From a virus (taxonomy: Duplodnaviria; Heunggongvirae; Uroviricota; Caudoviricetes), in the IMG/VR virus record IMGVR_UViG_3300009177_000029, positions 105,064 to 169,063 of that record: a stretch of 64,000 bases of DNA. The stretch is one strand, 5' to 3'. Below, piece after piece: positions 1-54,622 of this stretch; the stretch's first letter is position 1; each line of letters opens with the position of its first letter. The notes under the pieces are model-generated. The model saw nothing but the letters and a program-made list of their open reading frames with translations. It made no database searches and had not been told where the DNA came from. The position numbers and the translations under genes are program-made.

Positions 1-199
1 CACCTAGCTCACCATGCAGAGCATCAATCAAGTTTTCCAACTCATCGACGTCTGCTTCTTCCTTCGTAGTCATCCCATTGTCCTTGAACATCTGGTGTAG
101 TGACTCAACAAAGGCGATTGCGTCCAAAGCCTTTTCACGGGCTTCATCGGCTGGGTCGCGTTCCTCCTCAATCTGCTTGGCTGCTTCCTCGAAGTTCAT
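1..199 (-). CDS. hypothetical acidic protein (C-terminal part; gene continues beyond window start)
   Basis: Open minus-strand frame from ATG 199-197 to window edge (MNFEEAAKQIEEERDPADEAREKALDAIAFVESL...); ATGA overlap with upstream RHH gene stop; not in ORF track because truncated. Confidence 0.35.
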   Translation of the reverse strand, partial: MNFEEAAKQIEEERDPADEAREKALDAIAFVESLHQMFKDNGMTTKEEADVDELENLIDALHGELG

Positions 200-390
200 G
201 GCGTCACAGGCTCCACATCAGGAAGTGCTTCCTTGGCGATCATGCCCAATGAAACCATCACAGAGGTCTCGATGAACGATGATGCGCTGATGTTTGCTGC
301 TTCACAGTGCTTCCTCAGTGCATCGAGCACCGCAGGATCGATCGTGATAGACGTGCGCGTCTTGGCTTCCTTCTTCTGCTTTTCTTCCAT
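196..390 (-). CDS. ribbon-helix-helix (CopG/Arc-like) DNA-binding protein
   Basis: Internal Met of ORF 196..474; sequence KTRTSITIDPAVLDALRKHCEAANISASSFIE fits RHH beta-strand+two helices; starts 1 nt after GNAT stop. Confidence 0.4.
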   Translation of the reverse strand: MEEKQKKEAKTRTSITIDPAVLDALRKHCEAANISASSFIETSVMVSLGMIAKEALPDVEPVTP

Positions 391-391
391 T

Positions 392-811
392 TCAAACCTT
401 CCTTGTCCAGTACAGAGCGTCATCAGAGTTTCCCCAAGGCAAATCAGGCTTGTAGAGCTTGAATCCACTTGCAATCAGATTGTTGCTTGAGAAGACGTTA
501 TCTAGGTCAGTATACGTGATCACCGTTGATACGCCACAGCTTTTTGCCCAGAGCAAGCGCTTGCGAATCAATGCTTTCTGCAATCCAAGTCCACGATATT
601 CTGGAAGAACACCAGCGCGGCACAGATATACACGGCTCTTTTCCTTGAGGAAAACCGCACCTGCGTACGCAACTGGCGTCTTTCCATCGTATACGATCCA
701 CCACACACCCTCGTCAGTGTTGACTGGATGATGTTCCTTATAGTTGAACACAGTTGCATCAAGTGCATGTACAGCGTTCACATCTTTGGTCTGGCGGATT
801 CGTAGTTTCAT
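392..811 (-). CDS. GNAT family N-acetyltransferase
   Basis: 139 aa; acetyl-CoA binding motif A R-G-L-G-L-Q-K-A-L-I (Q/RxxGxG/A) and overall GNAT-size fold. Confidence 0.65.
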   Translation of the reverse strand: MKLRIRQTKDVNAVHALDATVFNYKEHHPVNTDEGVWWIVYDGKTPVAYAGAVFLKEKSRVYLCRAGVLPEYRGLGLQKALIRKRLLWAKSCGVSTVITYTDLDNVFSSNNLIASGFKLYKPDLPWGNSDDALYWTRKV

Positions 812-819
812 GGCTCACC

Positions 820-1668
820 TCAGGCGTTGCCGTCGTATACCTTTCCATTCCATGCGAAGTGACCATCGTTCATCACAACCACAAATGGGCTGCAATACTT
901 GTTATCTGGTCCGTAGAGTTCCAGAATGGTGAACCCGCGCTGCCAATCAGGGTCGTTGGCATACTCGTGGTCACCTGTCATGCAGGGATTGGCGATTGCG
1001 ACCGCTGTACGGCCGCGAGAGGTCTGGCACATCATCTGTGCGCGGTGGAAGTGCCCGAACACCTCCGAGGTGCCCATGGTCTTGGTGAGACGGTTGGCAG
1101 CTAGGTGCTTGCCTCCACCGTACTTACCAGACTGATTGTGGCCGTGACGAAGCACGAAGGGACCACACTGTAGGCCCTTGTTGACCGTATCCTCACGAGT
1201 CCACGTGATTCCCTTGCGAAGACCCTGCAAATAGCACTGATCTTCAAGGGTGAGACCGAGGGCGTCCTTCAACGCGTGGGCAGCATGCATGTGCAAGAAC
1301 TTCTGCCAGCGTTCATCGTGATTGCCTTCACAGATGATTAGCTGCACACCCGGATGGATGTCACGCAACTCGTTCATTTCCTTCACAAACATCTTGATCT
1401 GAGGGATGGCGTTCACAGGCGCACCGGGGCCCTGTGTGTATCTGCTCATCATTCCGAGGTCGATGAAGTCTCCAAGGACTACGACCTTATCAGGCTTGAC
1501 GTCTGCATACCACTTCTTGAATGCATTCCATGTTGCAGGGTCATGCAAATCGAAGTGAATGTCGCTCACAATGGCGACGAGTTCTGACTGGTTTGTTACG
1601 GCACTTAGCTTCTTTTTCTTTGTTGTCATGCAATCCTCATAGGCGAGTTCTCGGTCAGAGAAACCCAC
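820..1668 (-). CDS. calcineurin-like metallophosphoesterase (Ser/Thr phosphatase or Mre11-like)
   Basis: Motifs DIHFD (DxH), VVLGDFIDLG (GDxxDRG-like), GNHDE (GNHE), RHGH present in canonical order. Confidence 0.7.
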   Translation of the reverse strand: MGFSDRELAYEDCMTTKKKKLSAVTNQSELVAIVSDIHFDLHDPATWNAFKKWYADVKPDKVVVLGDFIDLGMMSRYTQGPGAPVNAIPQIKMFVKEMNELRDIHPGVQLIICEGNHDERWQKFLHMHAAHALKDALGLTLEDQCYLQGLRKGITWTREDTVNKGLQCGPFVLRHGHNQSGKYGGGKHLAANRLTKTMGTSEVFGHFHRAQMMCQTSRGRTAVAIANPCMTGDHEYANDPDWQRGFTILELYGPDNKYCSPFVVVMNDGHFAWNGKVYDGNA

Positions 1669-1982
1669 AGATCATGCACACGCTTGACGTATGCCGCTGG
1701 GAGCGTCTCTACGGGAGGCAGTTCTGACCGCGTGTCAGCCTTTGGCGTATTGGCGATGTTGGGGTGCGCAGAACTCAAACGTCCCGTTCTCGTCAACACA
1801 TTGAATGTCTTAGCAGCGTTCTGTCGGCTCAAGAAGCCTGCACAGCGTTGTGAACACGTAACACGCTTGCCAGTGGCTGCATAAGGTGTTTGACACACCA
1901 CACAGATCCTGGCGAAGTCACCTTCTGGTCCGTTCATCGTTCCTCCGTGTGTGAGTATGAGTCGTGCGCCGGAGTGTGTCAA
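1626..1982 (-). CDS. hypothetical zinc-ribbon protein
   Basis: ORF track; CVVCQ...CSQRC cysteine pairs; start uncertain (possibly internal Met). Confidence 0.3.
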   Translation of the reverse strand: MTHSGARLILTHGGTMNGPEGDFARICVVCQTPYAATGKRVTCSQRCAGFLSRQNAAKTFNVLTRTGRLSSAHPNIANTPKADTRSELPPVETLPAAYVKRVHDLWVSLTENSPMRIA

Positions 1983-1999
1983 GGTCGATCAGGAACTGC

Positions 2000-2305
2000 T
2001 CACTTACCAGGCTTGGTGAATGAATCCGAGGTCTTGTGTTTACCTGTGTCATCCTGCGGTGCCACAACTCGGCGCAAGTCTCGTGCACTTTCTTTTGACG
2101 ACCTTGTAATCGTCTTAGCTTCTGCGAGAGTAGCTCCCATTTCAGCAGCTACTGCGACGACAGAAGGCGGCACAACTTCAATCTTTACAGGCTTAGGCTC
2201 CATGTTGTACTCGACATGTTCCTCAAGACGACCAAGACGAAATCGAAGCTTGTTAAACTCGATTTCCAAGTCCTTGATCTTCCTTTGGAGTGCATCGAGA
2301 TCCAT
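2000..2305 (-). CDS. hypothetical coiled-coil protein
   Basis: ORF track; heptad-rich KIKDLEIEFNKLRFRLGRLEE; ATGA-type junction with neighbour at 2305. Confidence 0.35.
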   Translation of the reverse strand: MDLDALQRKIKDLEIEFNKLRFRLGRLEEHVEYNMEPKPVKIEVVPPSVVAVAAEMGATLAEAKTITRSSKESARDLRRVVAPQDDTGKHKTSDSFTKPGK

Positions 2306-2634
2306 CAGCGAGTCTTTGCCAACTGCAAGAGAAGTTCATGCATACGATCAAGCTTTTCATCTAGCTTACTAGTATTCTGCACAAGTTGATTCACGAGACC
2401 ACGCATTTCGGACATTTCATGCTTAGCAGCAAAAAGTTCCTTCGCGCGTGAACGTTCCTCTTCCAACTCTTGCTTGACGTGTGCCACCATCGCCTTGTGA
2501 GCAGCGTCAATGATGCCAGGCTTCTCTTCCTGGATCACAGATTGGGTTCGGGTCTTGTGAATCGCGAGTAGTGCCGGGATTGCCAGCGACGTGACTACAA
2601 GCGAAATGATTGCGATGATCTCAGCCATGCCCAT
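2305..2634 (-). CDS. hypothetical membrane-anchored coiled-coil protein
   Basis: N-terminal hydrophobic helix AEIIAIISLVVTSLAIPALLAI followed by charged coiled coil. Confidence 0.35.
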   Translation of the reverse strand: MGMAEIIAIISLVVTSLAIPALLAIHKTRTQSVIQEEKPGIIDAAHKAMVAHVKQELEEERSRAKELFAAKHEMSEMRGLVNQLVQNTSKLDEKLDRMHELLLQLAKTR

Positions 2635-2644
2635 AGGGAACTCC

Positions 2645-3013
2645 TCAGGACTGGTATTGAACTACGAAAGCTTCATAGGCCGACGTACCATCAGCGGCCT
2701 CAGCATAGACGTACGTACTCCCCCTAGAGTTGGCATCGTCTGATTCTGGAACAAACGGAATCTGAGACCATGGACCATACACAACGTCACGAGTTGGGTC
2801 CACAGCACCCGCACCCAGAGCCTTGTTACCAGAGAAGCGTACACGTACACCTCCGGCACCAACAAGAAGCAAGTGAATCTTGCCCTCGCTCAAGGATCTA
2901 TGCGTCTGCGTCTCAGCAGTACCTGTGCCCGCCAAACGCTGTGGCGTACGATTGCCAGGAACCTGGTCATCGACTAGTGGCGGAAGAGGGAAAAAGTTTC
3001 TGAACAACATCAT
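2645..3013 (-). CDS. hypothetical protein
   Basis: ORF track, 122 aa, co-oriented in operon. Confidence 0.3.
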   Translation of the reverse strand: MMLFRNFFPLPPLVDDQVPGNRTPQRLAGTGTAETQTHRSLSEGKIHLLLVGAGGVRVRFSGNKALGAGAVDPTRDVVYGPWSQIPFVPESDDANSRGSTYVYAEAADGTSAYEAFVVQYQS

Positions 3014-3077
3014 GACACCTCAGTATGGCATAGCCAGACAAGTATTCTAGCTTACCTAACTACCGAGGTCAATCGTA

Positions 3078-5051
3078 TCATCCGATTACACACATGTCGC
3101 CGTCACAAAAACGGGATGTGAGTTCATGCTTCGCGTCTGTAGTATCAAGAGGCGTAATACCGCTCTTGATCGACTCGTATTCGGTCTGCGAGATTGTTTC
3201 GTACGGTGCTTGTTCGTAGCCATGGTCTTCTAGTGGCAAGAACGACACACCCTTGAGTCGAGTCTCATACAGTTCCAAAGCGTACTTGATGTCCAACGCT
3301 TCTTCACTATCGAACGTGACCGTGACCGACACTTGGTTATCAGCCCAGAACTGCTGCATCTGTGCTGCAAGTTCAAGCTGTTCCCACATCGTCACGTCAT
3401 CCTTGCTTCGATCGTAGTTTCGTTCCTCAACCGGGAACGATGCCACCACCGTGTTCGGACTGTACTTATCCTTCTCGATTGGGTAACCGGCTGTACGCAA
3501 CTTCTCGACCAGTGGAGAAGTATCCTGCAAACGCACACGACGAATATAGTAACGTGCGTGAGGGAAGTGAATGCCTGGCGTGACACCTGGAAGCAAGCTG
3601 ACCGTGCCGGAAGGCTTTACACTCGTCACCTTGATGGATGTACGTACACAGAGCCAGTCAGCATACACGCGATCGAGATCACGAAGGTATTCGTAACCCT
3701 TATCACAGAACGTGCTGAGAAACTCGCGACGCCCGAACTTCTGCATTGCCTGGACGATACCGCTCATGGAGCAACCAATGCGTCGGTTGCGCATCATGAC
3801 CGTGTTCGTACGGTCATCATGCGTTGGCATCAGCGTGACAGTCTTCGCATACAAGTACGCGTACTTCAACGTCTTCTTGTAGTCTTCGAAGTTCTCATGC
3901 AAGCCCGGGAACGTTTCAACCAAGCAGCACAGTTCTCGGTCTTCCAAGGACTGTTCTACACATGGATTTGCACCCATGACACGCATGTCGGAGAAATCAG
4001 GCTCTCGTCCCATACGTCCGAACTTGCGAGCATTGTCCAACCACTGGTATCCAGGCTCACCGTTCTTGGAGGTCATACCAGCTACGATACCATAGGGCAT
4101 ACCGACCTCTGCAAACACAGAGTTGTTCGATGCCCAGCGGTGGTGCATCAATGCATCCTTATTCATGTCTGGATTCTTGAGCAACAAGAACTCTTCGTCT
4201 TGAGGATCACCAAAGGCAATCTCAGCAGAACGACGTACGTTACCTGCTACGACACAGCGTCCGATCAGGTTACAAATGTCCACAATCGCTGTGGAATCAA
4301 TAGTTTGACCGTACAATGGCTCAAAGATGGTTGAGATAGAGTGAACTAGCTCTTCCAGCGGCGCAGGACCGCTGGCGACTCCACCGAACCCTCGGATTGG
4401 TGCTCCGGCTGGTCGTACTCTAGAGTAATCGATTGTTTCCGGGATCGAGCCTCTGCCGACATGGGCATCGAGATAAACACGAAGCAGAGACACCCAACCC
4501 TCTCTAGTGTCCTCTACAACGAAAGTACCGTTGATTGAGGCAGGCTTCTGGATCTTGACGAGACCGACACCCTTGGTATCGAAGCCAACACCCACGCCGA
4601 GCATCAACATGTCCATCAACCAGCAGAATGGGTCTGCAAAGTCAACAGCAATACCCTTCGTCGAAACGAATCCGCAGTTATTGAGAGCTGCACCACCAAG
4701 ACGGTCGATAGCAGGAGAACCCATCATCCACAGACCACGACCAGGTGGAAGCCACTTGAAGGCCCACATGCGTCGGAACATTTCCTGAGCAGAACGCTGC
4801 GCCTTGCGGTCATCCCACGGAAGACGCAAGTTCTTGCAGTGACGCTTCTGCACGTCGTAGGTACCTTCGACTACGCGCTTGCACGTCTCCCAGAACTCTT
4901 CCAGAGACTCATCTGGCTTCGTGCGAGCATACGTACGCTTGTAGACAACATAGCCTAGGCCGTTGTAGCCCCAGGCTGGTTGTTTGTCTCGGTACTCGTC
5001 AAGGAAAGAATCGGAAAGCTTGAAAGATCGAATGGAATCAGCAGCACTCAT
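3078..5051 (-). CDS. nrdJ: ribonucleoside-triphosphate/diphosphate reductase, adenosylcobalamin-dependent (class II)
   Basis: 657 aa; N-terminal YVVYKRTYAR, LNNCGF, GVGVGF, active-site NPCVEQ (N-x-C-x-E) with CC pair, C-terminal Cys cluster; matches monomeric class II RNR architecture. Confidence 0.8.
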   Translation of the reverse strand: MSAADSIRSFKLSDSFLDEYRDKQPAWGYNGLGYVVYKRTYARTKPDESLEEFWETCKRVVEGTYDVQKRHCKNLRLPWDDRKAQRSAQEMFRRMWAFKWLPPGRGLWMMGSPAIDRLGGAALNNCGFVSTKGIAVDFADPFCWLMDMLMLGVGVGFDTKGVGLVKIQKPASINGTFVVEDTREGWVSLLRVYLDAHVGRGSIPETIDYSRVRPAGAPIRGFGGVASGPAPLEELVHSISTIFEPLYGQTIDSTAIVDICNLIGRCVVAGNVRRSAEIAFGDPQDEEFLLLKNPDMNKDALMHHRWASNNSVFAEVGMPYGIVAGMTSKNGEPGYQWLDNARKFGRMGREPDFSDMRVMGANPCVEQSLEDRELCCLVETFPGLHENFEDYKKTLKYAYLYAKTVTLMPTHDDRTNTVMMRNRRIGCSMSGIVQAMQKFGRREFLSTFCDKGYEYLRDLDRVYADWLCVRTSIKVTSVKPSGTVSLLPGVTPGIHFPHARYYIRRVRLQDTSPLVEKLRTAGYPIEKDKYSPNTVVASFPVEERNYDRSKDDVTMWEQLELAAQMQQFWADNQVSVTVTFDSEEALDIKYALELYETRLKGVSFLPLEDHGYEQAPYETISQTEYESIKSGITPLDTTDAKHELTSRFCDGDMCVIG

Positions 5052-10722: not shown

Positions 10723-11421
10723 TTAGTCTAGCAGAGACCACTCAGTCTCAGCCACGACAATATCCGATTCCTCAATCACACCCATACGTTTACGCATCGC
10801 AAGGGCAACAAGCTTCCTCAAGCACTCATCTACATGCTTCAAGAACACTTCCTCAAACGCAGTGTCAGTCTCTTCCGAAGTATTAGGCGGCGGCATACCC
10901 ATTTCTGTGAAAAGTTGAGCCTGAATACTCTCACCTGGCCCCGATTCGAGGTCATTCATGGCAAAAGTATCATCCACCGACGTCCAAACACACGGTCTAG
11001 CGAACGCCCAAGAGTCTATGCCTTTGGTATGACACACAAAGTCGAACCAAACAGCCGTATTTAGGCCCGAAGAGTCCCTCAAAACACTCGCTTTAGTCAC
11101 TTTGAGCAGCATTTCGAACGATGTAGTGGTACCCACATCCGTACGGACAGGCAAACTGACCTCTAGAAACCCTTTATCGAGGGTATACGCAGCGAGTACC
11201 ACACCATCCGCATGCATAAACGACCCCTGTGTGTTCAACACACGCCTCTTTAGGTCCATCGTTCTAAGTGTGCCCATCCGAAACTCCTCCAATCCGAGCT
11301 TAGCACGCTCATACTGGCGATCCACTGAGAACGCCTCCCTACAAGATCCCGGCCGAAAATGAACTTTCTCTCCATGGCGGGTATCAACTGAGAGCGTCTC
11401 CCGCATGACACGTGTCAACAC
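10723..11421 (-). CDS. hypothetical protein (first gene of leftward arm)
   Basis: ORF track 232 aa; faces the non-coding repeat hub. Confidence 0.4.
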   Translation of the reverse strand: MLTRVMRETLSVDTRHGEKVHFRPGSCREAFSVDRQYERAKLGLEEFRMGTLRTMDLKRRVLNTQGSFMHADGVVLAAYTLDKGFLEVSLPVRTDVGTTTSFEMLLKVTKASVLRDSSGLNTAVWFDFVCHTKGIDSWAFARPCVWTSVDDTFAMNDLESGPGESIQAQLFTEMGMPPPNTSEETDTAFEEVFLKHVDECLRKLVALAMRKRMGVIEESDIVVAETEWSLLD

Positions 11422-11589
11422 CTATACTCGACGGGTACTATTTTTCAAAAATCTAATATCCGGAGGCAGGTACAGGACTTACCCGACCCCAAGGAATCCC
11501 TTTTGATACGTGCTTGTCAACCGTACCCCTTTTGATACATGGCCCATTCCGTGCATACGTATCTCCCCGGATACATGAGGAAATGTGTG

Positions 11590-12480
11590 CTATGTAGGAC
11601 AATGTAGGCACACAGGGACAGGGTGGGTACTCATCCCACATTCACTCTACTGTAGGTAATATGCACACATGTAGTATTACGTAGGGCAGTGTAGGTGTTA
11701 CCAGAATCGCAGAGACTGAGAATCAAACACGATTATACTAAGGCTAGAGTTTAGGTATTGAGAGACACTCCGCGCCGAGCCCTACGCGATCGCTATGTAG
11801 GACATTGCGCACACTTACCTACACATTGGCATACCAAAGCATTGCAAAACGCTATGTAGGCAAAGGCTTACATTGACTCACATGTAACCGATGCTCGAAT
11901 GTTCAGGCTTTGCAAGCGTAAGCCATTGCGGCGCCTATACGCCTCGCAGAGACACAATCGGGGCGAGCTACGGCTAGGTATGGGGAACGTTGTAAAGATC
12001 GATTCTGGCGAGGCTATGTAACACATTGATAGTATTAGAGAAACACATGTCAGTTTACAGCTTACATGTGGGTTTACGTAGTATTGACACCTACATCGCA
12101 GGCAATAGTCATGCCACCTACAGTGTGCGTTATGTAGGTGTTTGCACACATTGTGTGTAGTGTAAGGAAATGTGTTCCGAGGAAGGGAAATGTGGGCTTA
12201 GGTAGTATGCTGTAGGACAATACTCACACTGTAGGTGAATGTAGGCAAAGACTCACATCATAATATGATGTAGGTGTTTTGGTTACACTGTAGACAATGT
12301 GGGTAAGTGTAGGGAAAAGGTTTACACGTAGGGAAAGGTGAGGCTATGTAGGGAAATGTATGCGTTGTGGGATAGCTGTAGGTGACACTACGTGTATTGT
12401 ATAGGCACGTAGTGTCATTGGCACAACCTACATGTGTGGAAATGTAGTCTGGCACATGTGAGGCAATGTAGGTGCGAGCT
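11590..12480. repeat. dense array of short TGTAGG/CCTACA and CTCACA/CACACA motifs (>25 copies, both orientations, ~20-bp spacing) in divergent non-coding hub
   Basis: Direct reading: ctatgtaggacaatgtaggcacaca, actgtaggtaatatgcacacatgtag, ctcacactgtaggtgaatgtaggc, gctatgtagggaaatgta etc.; ORF-track ORFs here translate to low-complexity junk. Confidence 0.6.
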
Positions 12481-12635
12481 AAGCTCACGTAATCATTGAG
12501 GAATAGACCGATTTTACTATGGCGGTAAACGGCCGCCGGTGTGCCACATTGTGCCACGACGCAATAGGCCAATGAAAACAAGCATTTAGCTCGCATTGCC
12601 CCGATTCGCCACGTGCCCCGTAATGACCCGAAATC

Positions 12636-12729
12636 GCTAAGTATGCGAAATCATTAGGCTTACATTAGCACACATGAGTCGTTTCGGGGCAGTGTGAGGC
12701 ATCACACAGAGGCTAAGTATGCGAAATCA
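12636..12729. repeat. 18-bp direct repeat gctaagtatgcgaaatca (two copies, 12636-12653 and 12712-12729)
   Basis: Exact match seen in sequence in the non-coding region upstream of the rightward arm. Confidence 0.45.
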
Positions 12730-12872
12730 CTCGGATCCGCTATAGGTTGAAAGGCTGAACAAACTAGCAGTGTTGAAATAAGCTAATAGAATCGCTTACT
12801 TACGTCGTTGGCACGACGGCTGCAACGTCTCGCGTAGGCGCAAAGCCGCGGCGAGAGGCATCGAAAAAGCCT

Positions 12873-12900
12873 TTGACCGCTTCTCGTTCTCTGTTAGTGT
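12873..12900 (+). promoter_or_regulatory. candidate sigma70-like promoter for rightward arm
   Basis: TTGACC-N16-TAGTGT ~65 nt upstream of gene 12968; SD aagagga before ATG. Confidence 0.3.
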
Positions 12901-12967
12901 CTCCCTTCCCATTGTGGGAAAACCGTTCCGCCTCGGATGTTAAGGCGTGTCAGAAGAGGATCGCACC

Positions 12968-13243
12968 ATGGCCAATCGCACCGTCACGATCGAGGGTCGC
13001 AACGTCACGATCACGCGTGAGACCCCCAAGGGACCCAAGGTCACGCACGAGACGATCGTCTCGTTCGCGGAAGGGGGCGCCATCGCTTCCGAGTCGGCCC
13101 GTGTGGCGCTCGCACTGGCGCGCACCGATGGTGCGTACCGTCGCCAGGGTGCGGCCGCTGCGCGTCGTGCGCTGGCCCCGATGCGCGATGCACTCCGCTC
13201 GGCGCTGGACGCCTCGATCGCGGAAGCGCTCGCCGCGGAGTGA
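12968..13243 (+). CDS. hypothetical Ala/Arg-rich protein (GC-rich island)
   Basis: Met with SD aagagga 7 nt upstream (MANRTVTIEGRNVTITRETPKG...); ORF track 12947..13243. Confidence 0.4.
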   Translation: MANRTVTIEGRNVTITRETPKGPKVTHETIVSFAEGGAIASESARVALALARTDGAYRRQGAAAARRALAPMRDALRSALDASIAEALAAE

Positions 13244-13315
13244 GCTAGGCCGAAACCTAGGGGGCGCAAGCCCCCGATGGTCTGTGCGTTACGCGCACAC
13301 TGACGATGGCCCCAC

Positions 13316-13982
13316 TGTGAACACCATTTCACATAAGCACGCGCCCGACGCATTCGCCACGTGTGGCGTTTGCTTCGCCCTTGCCGTGCGTGCGGAACGT
13401 GGCCCCGTTGTGCGTGCGAGCGGCACCGATCGTGCGGCCGATGCGCCCGTGTGCGCGCCCGTGCTTCCGATCGCAACGGATCGCGTTGTGGCGCATGCGA
13501 TCGTCGATCACACGATCGCAGCGGTCAAGCGTGCGCGTGCTCTCACGTCGGATCCTCGTGTCATTCTCGGCGCTTTCGAGTCAACGCAAGTCAAGATCGG
13601 TGCGCCTGCTACGGCTGCGCGCTCCACTGTCACGCTTGCGGCTCGTGTCGAGTCGGGCGAGGCGATCGATGCGATCCACGCTCTAGACCGTGACAATACG
13701 GGCGCGTTGCCGCGTAACCGTATGCGCGTGCGTGGCTCGCATGGCAGTGCAGGCCCGTCCGAGGCGCCTCAGGCGTTCCCGACGGCTGATACCGTCACGG
13801 GCGCCCGTGAGGGAGCACGCGGTAAGGCGTGCGCTGATATGGTGCGCCTTTGCGAGCGCTATCGTACGTCCAGCGGGCGCGATAAGGCGCTCGCGCGTGA
13901 CGCAATCCGCTTCCTACTCGACACGTGGCAGGATGACGCGGTGCGAAATGCCGCGATCTCCGGAGGATTCCCCGCACGCTGA
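13316..13982 (+). CDS. hypothetical protein (GC-rich island)
   Basis: C-terminal two-thirds of ORF 12873..13982 looks protein-like; its N-terminal part overlaps 12968..13243 and is RS-rich, so that part is wrong-frame; start guessed at GTG 13316. Confidence 0.3.
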
Positions 13983-14015
13983 AACGGTATCACATATGCG
14001 CGCAGCCGATACCGG

Positions 14016-17091: not shown

Positions 17092-17292
17092 GTGATGGGC
17101 ACGTTCAAATACTACACGACTCTTGCAGTCGTGAAGGAATGGCGTGTCTATCACTTGTGGGTTGACCGCTTCGGCGTGTTCAACCCTGTAGGTGTAGGCT
17201 TCGATCGTGACGGCTACTACATTCGTGTAGAGAAGTTCGAAGCGACCGAAGAACGTGTGGCATGTATGGCCACGTGGATTGCTGAGCGTTGA
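17092..17292 (+). CDS. hypothetical protein
   Basis: ORF track 66 aa. Confidence 0.25.
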   Translation: MMGTFKYYTTLAVVKEWRVYHLWVDRFGVFNPVGVGFDRDGYYIRVEKFEATEERVACMATWIAER

Positions 17293-17406
17293 CTCTGGGC
17301 AGGGCTTTGGAAGCGCTTGTGCCTCATATGCACAAGTATGACCGTTCGATTCGGTCCCGCACCATTCGTGTCATAGTGGCACGTACCAAAGAGAGGAAAG
17401 GTTTCT

Positions 17407-18129
17407 ATGAGCCAAGAGAAGAAGACCGAGACCGCCGCCGAGAAGACCAACAAGCTCATCCCCGAGATGCGCACGACGATGCTGCCCGCCATCACCGAGA
17501 AGCTCGGCGCGATCGTCGGCTTCGCGTTCGATGCGTTCCTGCTGCTCGTCTCGCGCGTCTGCGAAGACGTGTTCAAGATGCAGGCCGATTTCCAGCTCGT
17601 GAAGATGGTCATCGAAGCGCACAAGGCGCAGTCGAAGCTCGATGCCGAGACGATCAAGGATCTCAACCGTCGTCTCTCCGACATGACGTCGGCGCGTGAC
17701 ACGGCCACGTCCCTGCTCAACGCACGCATCGCGGAGCTGGACGATCTCAAGCGTCGCACGAGTGGTGCGCTGCTGACACTCGGACAGGTGTGCGGCGTCG
17801 GTGGAGGCACGCAGTTCGAGCCCGTGCACGTCACCCGTGGTGACCTGACGTTCGAGGAAGCGTTCTACCTCTTCATGGGACGCAAGATCGAGGCCATCAA
17901 GTGCTACCGTGAGCGCACGGGTCGTGGTCTCGCGGACAGCAAGGCGGCGGTCGAGGGCTACAGCCCGAACTCGAAGCTGTGGCAGGACATGAAGACGCTC
18001 ACCGAGCGCTGGGGCCAGGGCTGCTACGTCGCAACGAACCCGCCGAACAACGGCCGTGACCTCATGATGCAGGATCTGCGCGTCCAGCCCAAGGCGTTGA
18101 CGAGCACGTACGTCTCGCGACTCGGGTGA
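17407..18129 (+). CDS. protein with ribosomal L7/L12 C-terminal-like domain
   Basis: SD agaggaaagg; FEEAFYLFMGRKIEAIKCYRERTGRGLADSKAAVE parallels L7/L12 CTD [24 protein letters not shown]; N-terminal helical part. Confidence 0.5.
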   Translation: MSQEKKTETAAEKTNKLIPEMRTTMLPAITEKLGAIVGFAFDAFLLLVSRVCEDVFKMQADFQLVKMVIEAHKAQSKLDAETIKDLNRRLSDMTSARDTATSLLNARIAELDDLKRRTSGALLTLGQVCGVGGGTQFEPVHVTRGDLTFEEAFYLFMGRKIEAIKCYRERTGRGLADSKAAVEGYSPNSKLWQDMKTLTERWGQGCYVATNPPNNGRDLMMQDLRVQPKALTSTYVSRLG

Positions 18130-18136
18130 TCCACTC

Positions 18137-18214
18137 GGCACAAGCGGAAACGTTTGTGCCACTTATTGAGTAGAGGAGACGGGGCTGTTAAGCGGCTCCT
18201 CTACTCAATAAGTG
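18137..18214 (+). terminator. tandem stem-loops after gene 17407..18129 (7-bp stem, then 19-bp perfect stem)
   Basis: ggcacaa-N10-ttgtgcc; ccacttattgagtagaggag-N17-ctcctctactcaataagtg; no U-tract. Confidence 0.4.
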
Positions 18215-33936: not shown

Positions 33937-34199
33937 TGCGCACGGCAATCCTTTTGTGTGCACTGCTCGCAGGTTGCGAGGTCAGTGATGACACGGCGGA
34001 TCATGCGCTTCACAACGAGGGTCTCCACCGTGCCACGTATGGCGGTCCTGCCGTCTTCTCGTGTCACGATGGTGATGATTGGTCACGAACCTTCCTGGCG
34101 TATCGCACGGTCCTCGATCGTGACGGGCGTCCGGAGGAACAACAGGTGTCCGGAGTCATCTGTTGTGGCTTTCTCACCTGTGTGGTGAGAGTCGACTGA
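33936..34199 (+). CDS. small lipoprotein
   Basis: GTGATG overlap; MRTAILLCALLAGC lipobox. Confidence 0.4.
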   Translation: MRTAILLCALLAGCEVSDDTADHALHNEGLHRATYGGPAVFSCHDGDDWSRTFLAYRTVLDRDGRPEEQQVSGVICCGFLTCVVRVD

Positions 34200-34301
34200 T
34201 CTACGAGGGCTGCGTCTCATTAATCGCAGGGTTCCCTAGATGACATGTGGCAGTGTCAACCTGTCTTTTAACCAGGTTAGTTTGTATCATCCGGTCTACG
34301 A

Positions 34302-34325
34302 TTGTACGTGCGGCCGCACGTACAA
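34302..34325. promoter_or_regulatory. 24-bp perfect palindrome ttgtacgtgcggccgcacgtacaa
   Basis: Self-complementary over all 24 nt, in 225-bp intergenic region upstream of gene 34425. Confidence 0.5.
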
Positions 34326-34424
34326 CGGCGATAGATTGGGCTCATGATACAGCATTTGTGGGTTCGATTCCCACCTAGGGTATTGGGTAGCAATCTCGCT
34401 ATTCATGTTTGATCGGAGAAGTGT

Positions 34425-46086: not shown

Positions 46087-46298
46087 GTTCACCCGGTCGC
46101 TGGATCCTGTGAGCGCGCTCATGGGTCGCTTGCGCATCATCGAGGCTGATTTAGTTCAAAGCGACTGTCAGTCTGCACAGTAGGCCGCCAGGTGCACTGA
46201 GGAGACAAGAGTAACGTTCCTTGTGGGTGCAGTGAAAGCAACGGTTCTACACTTGGTGTTGTTATCCTGGTTCGATTCCGGGAGGCTGGATAGGAGAA

Positions 46299-53566: not shown

Positions 53567-53710
53567 GCTTGCGGTAGTACGTAAGCCGTGCTATTCTTCT
53601 CGCGGGAGTTAAGATGCGTTTACCTCGTGATTTGCATGTTGTTGCCATGATTACCGGACGAAAGGGTGGAGCCTTCAAGGACACTCGGTCTGGTCGTGGT
53701 GGCACGCGCA

Positions 53711-53737
53711 ATACTCAGCAAGAGCTACTTGCTGAGT
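53711..53737. promoter_or_regulatory. perfect 11-bp palindromic hairpin tactcagcaag-agct-acttgctgagta
   Basis: Seen directly ~30 nt upstream of gene 53765. Confidence 0.4.
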
Positions 53738-53764
53738 ACGAGGACTCCCGCGAGGAGAGTCACG

Positions 53765-54622
53765 ATGGGCAGGAAAGTAGATCTAGAAAGAGCAGCACTA
53801 GTTGAGAAGCTTGGCGTAAGCAAGACCAAAAACTGGTCGAAGAAAGAGCTTCTAGAAATGGAAGCCAAGCGAGTAGCCAAGGAAGAAAAAGCAGCCGAGA
53901 AGAAGGCAATGACGGACATGATTGCAGGTCCGCCACCAACAATGCCAGCGGCTGAGCTACAGATTCCGTACGACCTACGCACCACACCGGATGACCCGTT
54001 CAATGGCCTCACAGAGCGTCAGAAGAACATCGCGCGTCTCCGTATGCGAGGTCTGTCACAGCAGACGATTGCCAACCTAGTTGGTGTCGCACAACCAATC
54101 ATTTCCAAGGAACTGGCGCGTATCAAGGAATGGCAAGCTGAGCAAGGCGCTAGCGTTGACCAAGCCGCTACAGTTGGCCACGTTCGATCAGTGTATTCCG
54201 AAGTGACAGAGGCGGCATGGCTTCTGTTCTCGAAGGCACAGAACGCTATGTTGGGTGAGAACCCCAATCCGAACGCGTTCGCCGATTCAGTGAAAGCACT
54301 TGCAGTCGTAACATCCTCGACGCAAGCACATACCAAGTTCCTCATGGACATGGGTATGTTGAAGAAGGCAGCACAAGAGATCAAGCACGTCATTGAGCCG
54401 TCTCCGTTCATCGCAAACTGGAAAGACGGATCTGCGAAGAAGAAGCTTGCGGACACGCTCGTTTCGAGTCAGCTTCCAGCATTGCCTGAGCCTACACCTG
54501 ACGACGTGATTGAGGGTGAGGTTCAAGAACAAGAAGTTGACATCGTGGTGCCGGCACCAAAGGTTTCTGATTTGGCTGAGCCTACGCCCGATGTAGAGGA
54601 GATTGAGCTTGAAGCCGAATAA
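53765..54622 (+). CDS. HTH (sigma-70 region-4-like) protein; possible terminase small subunit or transcription regulator
   Basis: LTERQKNIARLRMRGLSQQTIANLVGVAQPIISKELARI fits sigma70_r4 HTH; acidic C-terminus. Confidence 0.4.
   Translation: MGRKVDLERAALVEKLGVSKTKNWSKKELLEMEAKRVAKEEKAAEKKAMTDMIAGPPPTMPAAELQIPYDLRTTPDDPFNGLTERQKNIARLRMRGLSQQTIANLVGVAQPIISKELARIKEWQAEQGASVDQAATVGHVRSVYSEVTEAAWLLFSKAQNAMLGENPNPNAFADSVKALAVVTSSTQAHTKFLMDMGMLKKAAQEIKHVIEPSPFIANWKDGSAKKKLADTLVSSQLPALPEPTPDDVIEGEVQEQEVDIVVPAPKVSDLAEPTPDVEEIELEAE

Follow-up and report, generated by a model that had tools for sequence, protein, structure and literature searches.

The subject of this analysis is a non-coding region, here called the hub, in a tailed phage genome (Caudoviricetes) represented by the IMG/VR record IMGVR_UViG_3300009177_000029. 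The stretch analysed, referred to as the window, covers 64,000 nucleotides (positions 105,064 to 169,063 of that record), and both the claims of an earlier note on this DNA and all window-wide counts given below refer to this 64-kb window. It has a GC content of ~53%, and its open reading frames (ORFs) include homologues of rIIA and rIIB, a class II ribonucleotide reductase (RNR), NAMPT, a cytidylyltransferase-like protein, a DNA ligase, a MoxR-like ATPase with a VWA partner, NUDIX and HD proteins and many orphans; the gene content therefore resembles part of a large tailed phage. The hub lies between two divergent operons and is densely occupied by the hexamer TGTAGG and its complement CCTACA, which appear to represent a selected site for protein binding.

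A non-coding hub dense in TGTAGG

Homologous hubs were reached via the proteins encoded on either side and belong to three lineages. Lineage A comprises the window and contigs L013, L014 and L015 (~98% identical to one another), lineage B comprises L017 (the same contig as L008) and L018, and lineage C is L016. The relatives come from rhizosphere JGI samples and from other ENA and Logan assemblies.

As first described, the hub is a strand divergence point, with all credible genes to its left on the minus strand and all those to its right on the plus strand. The gap had been placed at 11422-12967; its non-coding character was upheld and its limits were found to be slightly wider. The most likely start of the left gene is ATG 11277, which is preceded by a GGAGGAG Shine-Dalgarno sequence and begins an MG(T/S)L terminus kept in three lineages, and the frame upstream of it is not conserved. 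Together with the start of the right gene at ATG 12968 this sets the gap at 11278-12967. The statement that no credible ORF exists there also holds. Minus-strand ORFs of 93 and 112 amino acids (aa) are present because CCTACA is free of stop codons whichever frame is read, and neither is conserved or biased by codon position. Substitutions in the hub are spread evenly over codon positions and every frame has stops in at least one lineage. The hub is non-coding.

Exact copies within 11590-12480 number 15 for TGTAGG and 4 for CCTACA, compared with 10 and 14 in the other 62 kb, and the whole hub holds 20 on both strands. The longer form ATGTAGG occurs nine times in the region and nowhere else in the window on the forward strand. 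When one mismatch is allowed, 29 forward and nine reverse sites (38 in all) are found in 11560-12500, so that the earlier count of at least 25 copies is correct when variants are included and incorrect for exact copies. In 1000 dinucleotide-preserving shuffles of the hub the two hexamers together reached a mean of 1.1 and a maximum of 7, and no 6-mer ever exceeded nine copies. The enrichment over the rest of the window is ~30-fold for both strands and ~95-fold for the forward strand. The excess thus stands against both the remaining window and the shuffled hub, and the motif-dense hub is a real observation with very strong statistical support.

TGTAGG was not found in other intergenic regions of the 64-kb window, with the exception of a copy at 18213. 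This copy, upstream of gene 18246, had been pointed out in the earlier note and is consistent with chance. A pair at 17187/17193 lies inside a small ORF, where it encodes VGVG. A long perfect hairpin (cttattgagtagaggag...ctcctctactcaataag) is located at 18160-18212, after gene 17407-18129, and is directly followed by the lone copy at 18213; it resembles an intrinsic terminator and has no clear T-run.

The arrangement of the sites is regular. Tandem Repeats Finder detected no tandem repeat in the hub, and the spacers between sites are unrelated to one another, the common part being only the core C(A/T)ATGTAGG(T), with 6-7 bp conserved. This is expected of a selected binding site and not of slippage. 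Distances from site to site are 9-11, 19-20, 29-30 and 39 bp and are thus multiples of ~9.7 bp, which replaces the spacing of 19-29 bp (about two helical turns) given previously. The periodicity has a Rayleigh R of 0.63-0.78 at a period of 9.65-9.8 bp (p = 0.0005-0.008 versus randomly placed sites), and in the right array 16 of the 37 lattice positions between 12124 and 12472 hold a site at up to one mismatch, against a background of 1.2%. The nine reverse sites share the same period (R = 0.89), and are shifted by 240 degrees (6.4 bp) relative to the forward register. This offset equals the centre-to-centre distance of the half-sites in the palindrome CCTACATGTAGG and fits dimer-type recognition. 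The CTCACA and GCACACA sequences that had been seen before many copies are indeed present, and can be reread as degenerate reverse half-sites of partial palindromes (YACA-N0-1-TGTAGG). A 107-bp higher-order repeat (repeat family D1) did not hold on inspection, and likenesses of TGTAGG to the complement of a DnaA box, a CsrA site or a LexA box were too weak to be retained.

Conservation of the hub and its candidate sigma54 promoters

The alignment of the three lineages is a mosaic in which conserved blocks are 75-95% identical, whereas neither TGTAGG array can be aligned; the identity of blocks IV and V (12415-12841) is ~75%. Despite this turnover the motif itself is kept, with 20, 12 and 10 exact copies in the three lineages versus 0.6-1.3 expected, and it is the top or a near-top enriched 6-mer. 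The hub of L016 contains two perfect palindromes CCTACATGTAGG. Among the ~98% identical strains of lineage A, single nucleotide polymorphisms convert near-sites to perfect sites at 12194, 12294 and 12460/61. In lineage A the motif has been amplified to about 40 copies in two arrays. As judged from sequence, TGTAGG behaves as a selected, helically phased and dimer-compatible protein-binding word: conservation is limited to the core, the sites keep to a helical lattice, and three lineages retain the motif although the arrays turn over.

A more distant relative, L007 (IMGVR_UViG_3300033121_000603), has an RNR 68% identical to that of the window, and its hub shares with the window TGTAGGACAATGCGCACACTGTAGG, TAAGTATGCGGAATCATT and GTGACACTACGTG. 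The first of these is a 25-nt TGTAGG composite, and the last, which is the motif of the inverted repeat listed in the table, recurs in both L007 and L017 and constitutes a second conserved motif. In L001-L004 and L006, which are also RNR relatives, nothing comparable to the hub lies within 10 kb. The L007 hub (1-3480) is 3.4 kb long and mostly non-coding. The repeat (T)TGATAC occurs nine times in it at 3200-3330, tgaatttataatttttgaaaacta is present three times and GTGACACTA several times. A strong hairpin (AAAATCCATGCC...GGCATGGATTTT) at L016:9180-9215 is accompanied by T-runs on either strand and resembles a bidirectional terminator; it is located between the divergent sigma54 promoters and the central block, and the window lacks it at the corresponding position of the alignment.

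The hub and the hubs of its relatives carry candidate sigma54-type promoters, which the earlier note overlooked. In the window, TGGCACGACGGCTGCA is the only exact match to TGGCAC-N6-TGCW and has one mismatch to TGGCACG-N4-TTGCW. The repeats in block V (AAGTATGCGAAAT) are ~200 and 124 bp upstream of the start predicted for this promoter. Lineage B keeps both promoter elements with a different N4 (TGGCACGTGCGCTGCA). In L016 the -12 GC of this particular promoter is lost and the AAGTATGCGAAAT repeats are also missing; its hub has a divergent pair of sigma54 promoters, of which one is perfect and the other has a single mismatch. A CCTACATGTAGG palindrome abuts each of them, and the palindromes each lie ~120 bp upstream of the opposite sigma54 start. 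Four independent perfect copies of TGGCACG-N4-TTGCW were found in L007 (1432+, 1677+, 2917- and 2957-), and L005 (IMGVR_UViG_3300002835_000308) has at least six perfect tandem sigma54 elements (TGGCACGAAGGTTGCT) within positions 1-240, one per 26 bp. The L005 elements face away from the RNR-side operon and the contig ends inside the array; next to them CACCGCGTGACCATACA is present three times and two longer repeats twice each. A second, leftward candidate in the window is TGGCATGACTATTGCC. The lineage B sequence aligned with it, TGGCCTAAGCCTTGCT, keeps GG and TTGC and differs in the spacer, according to an unscored reading by eye, and this leftward sigma54-like element is weak on its own.

Parts of the hub and flanking genes

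The coordinates of the individual parts are listed below.

Features of the hub and the genes that flank it (window coordinates)
Feature	Position	Strand	Basis or remark
Whole non-coding hub, 1690 bp, between divergent operons	11278-12967	.	Gene calls, start-codon conservation
First gene of the leftward operon, 184-aa orphan	10723-11277	-	Homologue P0002, 61% identical
Block I, nearly invariant in three lineages	11440-11541	-	Alignment; no RNA covariation
ATTTTTCAAAAAT within block I	11440-11452		Alignment
Two CCCTTTTGATAC repeats within block I	11498-11512, 11527-11541		Repeat family D19
Left TGTAGG array, ~13 sites at up to one mismatch, mostly forward	11590-11872	+	Unalignable between lineages
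Central conserved block, 80% identical to lineage B, non-coding	11876-12105	.	Alignment
Two ACATGTNNGTTTAC sites in the central block	12045-12058, 12064-12077		
Candidate leftward sigma54-like element TGGCATGACTATTGCC, TGTAGG directly before it	12101-12116	-	Two mismatches
Right TGTAGG array	12117-12480	+	9.69-bp lattice
Perfect 12-bp inverted repeat TGACACTACGTG / CACGTAGTGTCA, 11 bp between arms	12383-12417	.	Inverted repeat I25
Block IV, last 65 bp of the right array, conserved in all lineages	12415-12480		
Block V, ~75% conserved	12480-12740	.	Conserved in L017; no RNA covariation
Direct repeats GCTAAGTATGCGAAATCA in block V	12636-12653, 12712-12729		Repeat family D7
Candidate sigma54-type -24/-12 promoter TGGCACGACGGCTGCA, ~135 nt upstream of the first rightward gene	12809-12824	+	
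First gene of the rightward operon, 91-aa orphan	12968-13243	+	ATG 12968; 82-86% identical across lineages

Block I is probably the promoter/operator zone of the leftward operon, and TGATAC repeats and a TTTTTGAAAA element occur at the same relative place in L007. The central block also holds the invariant sequence TGTAAAGATCGATTCT and gave only weak support for RNA structure. The covariation terms of three conserved blocks were +2.56, -3.56 and +0.31 kcal/mol, and no Rfam match was found in the hub; the idea that hub blocks are RNA genes was dropped because these three blocks showed no convincing covariation and Rfam no match.

No function could be assigned to the flanking proteins by similarity. 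The 184-aa left-flank protein had no match in Pfam, PHROG or PDB, the 91-aa right-flank protein had no relatives among 1.8 billion representative proteins, nothing was found when it was searched in viral and genome contigs, and a comparison of three flank proteins with PDB sequences was empty. The AlphaFold2 model of the 91-aa protein is of low confidence (predicted local distance difference test, pLDDT, 62.6) and was too poor for a fold search. Lineages in which the left-flank protein is only 61% identical share 82-86% identity in this protein. Its gene, together with the orphan gene at ~13190-13982, lies in a GC island at 13000-14000 (66.7% GC versus ~53% for the genome). The leftward operon has a 20-nt direct repeat, ATC(C/A)ACTGAGA(A/G)CG(C/T)CTCCC, in its presumed 5' leader at 11320-11339 and 11383-11402, and a weaker third copy is present in the rightward leader at 12891-12905.

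Among 50,697 phage records, nucleotide searches found no match to the hub or to 24 kb of the window, an exact 34-mer from the TGTAGG array was not found in IMG/VR, and a scan of metagenome contigs with a conserved 20-mer returned four chance matches only (L009-L012). Contigs of 69 kb and 169 kb encode proteins identical to both hub-flanking genes. Cultured phages showed only distant matches at the protein level (rIIA ~30% and RNR 46% identical), and DSL-LC01 has no synteny with the window. A literature search on the TGTAGG motif and on sigma54-dependent phage promoters found nothing directly relevant.

Elsewhere in the window, ARAGORN predicted a tRNA-Met at 17293-17363, for which the Rfam tRNA model scored below its gathering score; it may be spurious or an unusual tRNA. 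The non-coding stretches 33937-34424 and 46087-46298, just upstream of genes, end in a sequence resembling the T-arm of a tRNA (GGTTCGATTCC), and neither ARAGORN nor Rfam detected anything in them.

Possible functions of the hub

The hub is tentatively interpreted as a cooperative protein-binding array, similar to an enhancer or operator, which would control the divergent early operons. This possibility is ranked first because of the position of the arrays relative to the promoters, the palindromic form of the site and its coupling to sigma54 promoters in L016. A sequence-specific DNA-binding protein would recognise the half-site (A)TGTAGG(T), of which CCTACATGTAGG in L016 would be the full palindrome. 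The ~9.7-bp lattice is close to one helical turn (~10.5 bp), so that bound proteins would be placed to contact one another, and a cooperative nucleoprotein assembly could coat two stretches of ~300 bp. The two arrays flank a conserved core and would lie upstream of the outward-facing promoters, one of them of sigma54 type, of divergent and presumably early operons. The most likely job of such an assembly would be to switch or tune divergent early transcription. From these features we infer that a protein binds and that its binding would regulate transcription.

Several observations weigh against this interpretation. The periodicity is significant in lineage A only, the sites are mostly in one direction and their layout is not mirrored about the two promoters. 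With ~38 sites over 900 bp the hub is far above known operators or enhancers. The sigma54 match of the window is not significant by itself, as 0.4 are expected and at least one occurs in 34% of shuffles. Its arrays are 330-1200 bp from the 12809 promoter, beyond typical upstream activating sequences (UAS), for which role the AAGTATGCGAAAT repeats are better placed, and in L007 the TGTAGG composite is downstream and not upstream of the sigma54 promoters. Pfam searches (1e-3) of nearly all window ORFs detected no DNA-binding regulator or enhancer-binding protein, and neither a member of the Sigma54_activat family nor a GAFTGA motif in any frame was found in the window or the related loci. Of the suggestion that the motif is a binding site for a phage-encoded regulator, the selected binding site is supported, and no such regulator was detected in the window. 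An enhancer-binding protein may come from the host.

Partial parallels exist among known regulatory regions. Like sigma54 promoters with UAS, the hub has -24/-12 elements, and the L016 palindromes are situated ~120 bp upstream of the opposite promoter; those systems usually have two or three sites, whereas the hub has tens, farther from the promoter, and no enhancer-binding protein was found. To our knowledge, no pattern of large lytic-type phages relying on sigma54 has been established. The head-to-tail arrays bound by winged-helix response regulators (PhoB, PhoP, OmpR and CpxR) and the MraZ boxes are also phased direct repeats of variable copy number. They consist of 2-8 units of 5-7 bp spaced 10-11 bp centre to centre, in contrast to the hub with its about 38 sites, its additional palindromic form and no such regulator in the window.

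A doubtful but substantial alternative is that the hub is a replication origin, with TGTAGG as a short iteron bound by a phage initiator or helicase loader and the arrays flanking a melting core. Classic iteron origins have direct repeats of 17-22 bp at about two helical turns and an adjacent initiator gene, and the arrangement of two arrays about a melting core can be compared with the origins of staphylococcal pathogenicity islands (SaPI), P4 ori/crr, the pentamer origins of polyomaviruses and the phased low-affinity DnaA sites of oriC. As in the iterons of P1, F and lambda, the hexamers of SaPI ori and the octamers of P4 ori/crr, there are many, mostly direct, copies of a short word; as in such origins, two clusters surround a conserved core, here 230 bp long, in non-coding DNA, and copy number is labile and differs between lineages. 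A long conserved non-coding region is in itself unusual in a compact phage genome. The hub coincides with the strand switch and contains the cumulative GC-skew minimum, although gene orientation and the G-rich motif both confound the skew signal. The central core includes the lowest-GC 40 bp of the hub (12018-12057), which at 30% GC are not a strong AT-rich unwinding element. DnaA boxes are not enriched or clustered in the hub, with one near-match (one mismatch), and no initiator (Rep), primase, helicase or polymerase was recognised in the 64-kb window. The core of 6-7 bp, on a one-turn lattice of ~9.7 bp that is about half occupied over 900 bp, also departs from the iteron pattern. Control of transcription and origin function are not mutually exclusive.

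Three other explanations are less probable. It is quite unlikely that the hub is a structural cis site, whether a packaging site or terminus, a centromere-like site bound by a filament-forming adaptor (as in parC/ParR or the omega heptads) or an injection stop as in phage T5. In parC and omega operator-centromeres the sites typically occupy a strict lattice of short period in either orientation, an arrangement suited to cooperative filament-like binding upstream of an operon; their lattice of 7 or 10-11 bp is fully occupied over 70-160 bp, unlike the sparse hub of 900 bp, and no ParA, ParM, ParR, ribbon-helix-helix or winged-helix protein, tubulin or terminase was detected in window ORFs. The anatomy of the hub recalls the iss region of T5, a virulent phage, which is 1662 bp long, non-coding and rich in direct and inverted repeats and palindromes whose order is conserved while neighbours diverge (bioRxiv 10.1101/866236). 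The hub is similar in size (~1.7 kb), repeat density and conservation, but lacks the paired DnaA boxes of the T5 region, which itself lies within the terminal repeat. Five contigs (L005, L007, L014, L015 and L018) start inside the hub, a point in favour of such a site; contig breaks are also expected at repeats and strain variation, and the hub is internal to long contigs both in the window (>50 kb on one side) and in L008 (>86 kb). Action at the RNA level, for example of transcribed AUGUAGG (or CCUACA) repeats as a sponge for an RNA-binding protein, is highly improbable. Candidate promoters do aim into the arrays (12116 minus in the window, 9270 minus and 9371 plus in L016) and the strand bias of 29 to 9 is strong, but helical phasing and palindromic half-sites belong to double-stranded DNA, covariation and Rfam matches are lacking, and the base after GG varies (A/T/C/G), so the repeats are not a GGA-type CsrA motif. 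Scarcely credible is the proposal that the hub serves a phage-encoded (single-subunit) RNA polymerase or sigma factor as a battery of promoters. It draws on a superficial CTCACA...AGG likeness and on a weak sigma/helix-turn-helix-like match in ORF 53666-54622. Sites 9.7 bp apart are too close to be promoters in their own right, the motif keeps to the hub and is absent upstream of other window genes (the 18213 copy being at chance level), and sigma70-like promoter matches are not enriched (2 found versus 2.4 expected). There is no conserved promoter of ~20 bp, and Pfam detected no single-subunit polymerase among nearly all window ORFs, so the analogy to such enzymes drawn previously is not supported either.

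The hub is best filed with the known class of multi-site nucleoprotein control regions, among which its sigma54 link is unusual. Long conserved non-coding regions are rare in phages, and the cases studied are origins, packaging sites, injection control regions and genetic switches. The hub offers a strong candidate binding word, a geometry (the 9.7-bp lattice and a palindromic unit) and variants in nature that range from 10 to 20 copies; the putative binder could therefore be fished directly, for example with (TGTAGGNNNN)n or CCTACATGTAGG. An unlikely extension of the enhancer/operator interpretation is that this clade of large soil phages would use host sigma54 for its divergent early programme, with the hub as a phage 'super-enhancer', in which the ~40 phased sites would nucleate a large assembly of activator or scaffold proteins that fires host-sigma54 promoters in both directions, and may be coupled to origin firing, while the hubs of relatives would have expanded sigma54 promoters into tandem arrays (L005). 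If this were true, such tandem arrays could titrate sigma54 holoenzyme from host genes. The co-occurring sigma54-type promoters, which in relatives are perfect and in part tandemly repeated, suggest that a group of large soil phages, all uncultured, may rely on the enhancer-dependent transcription of their hosts or manipulate it; if so, this would be an unusual early-gene strategy and would narrow their host range to sigma54-bearing phyla.

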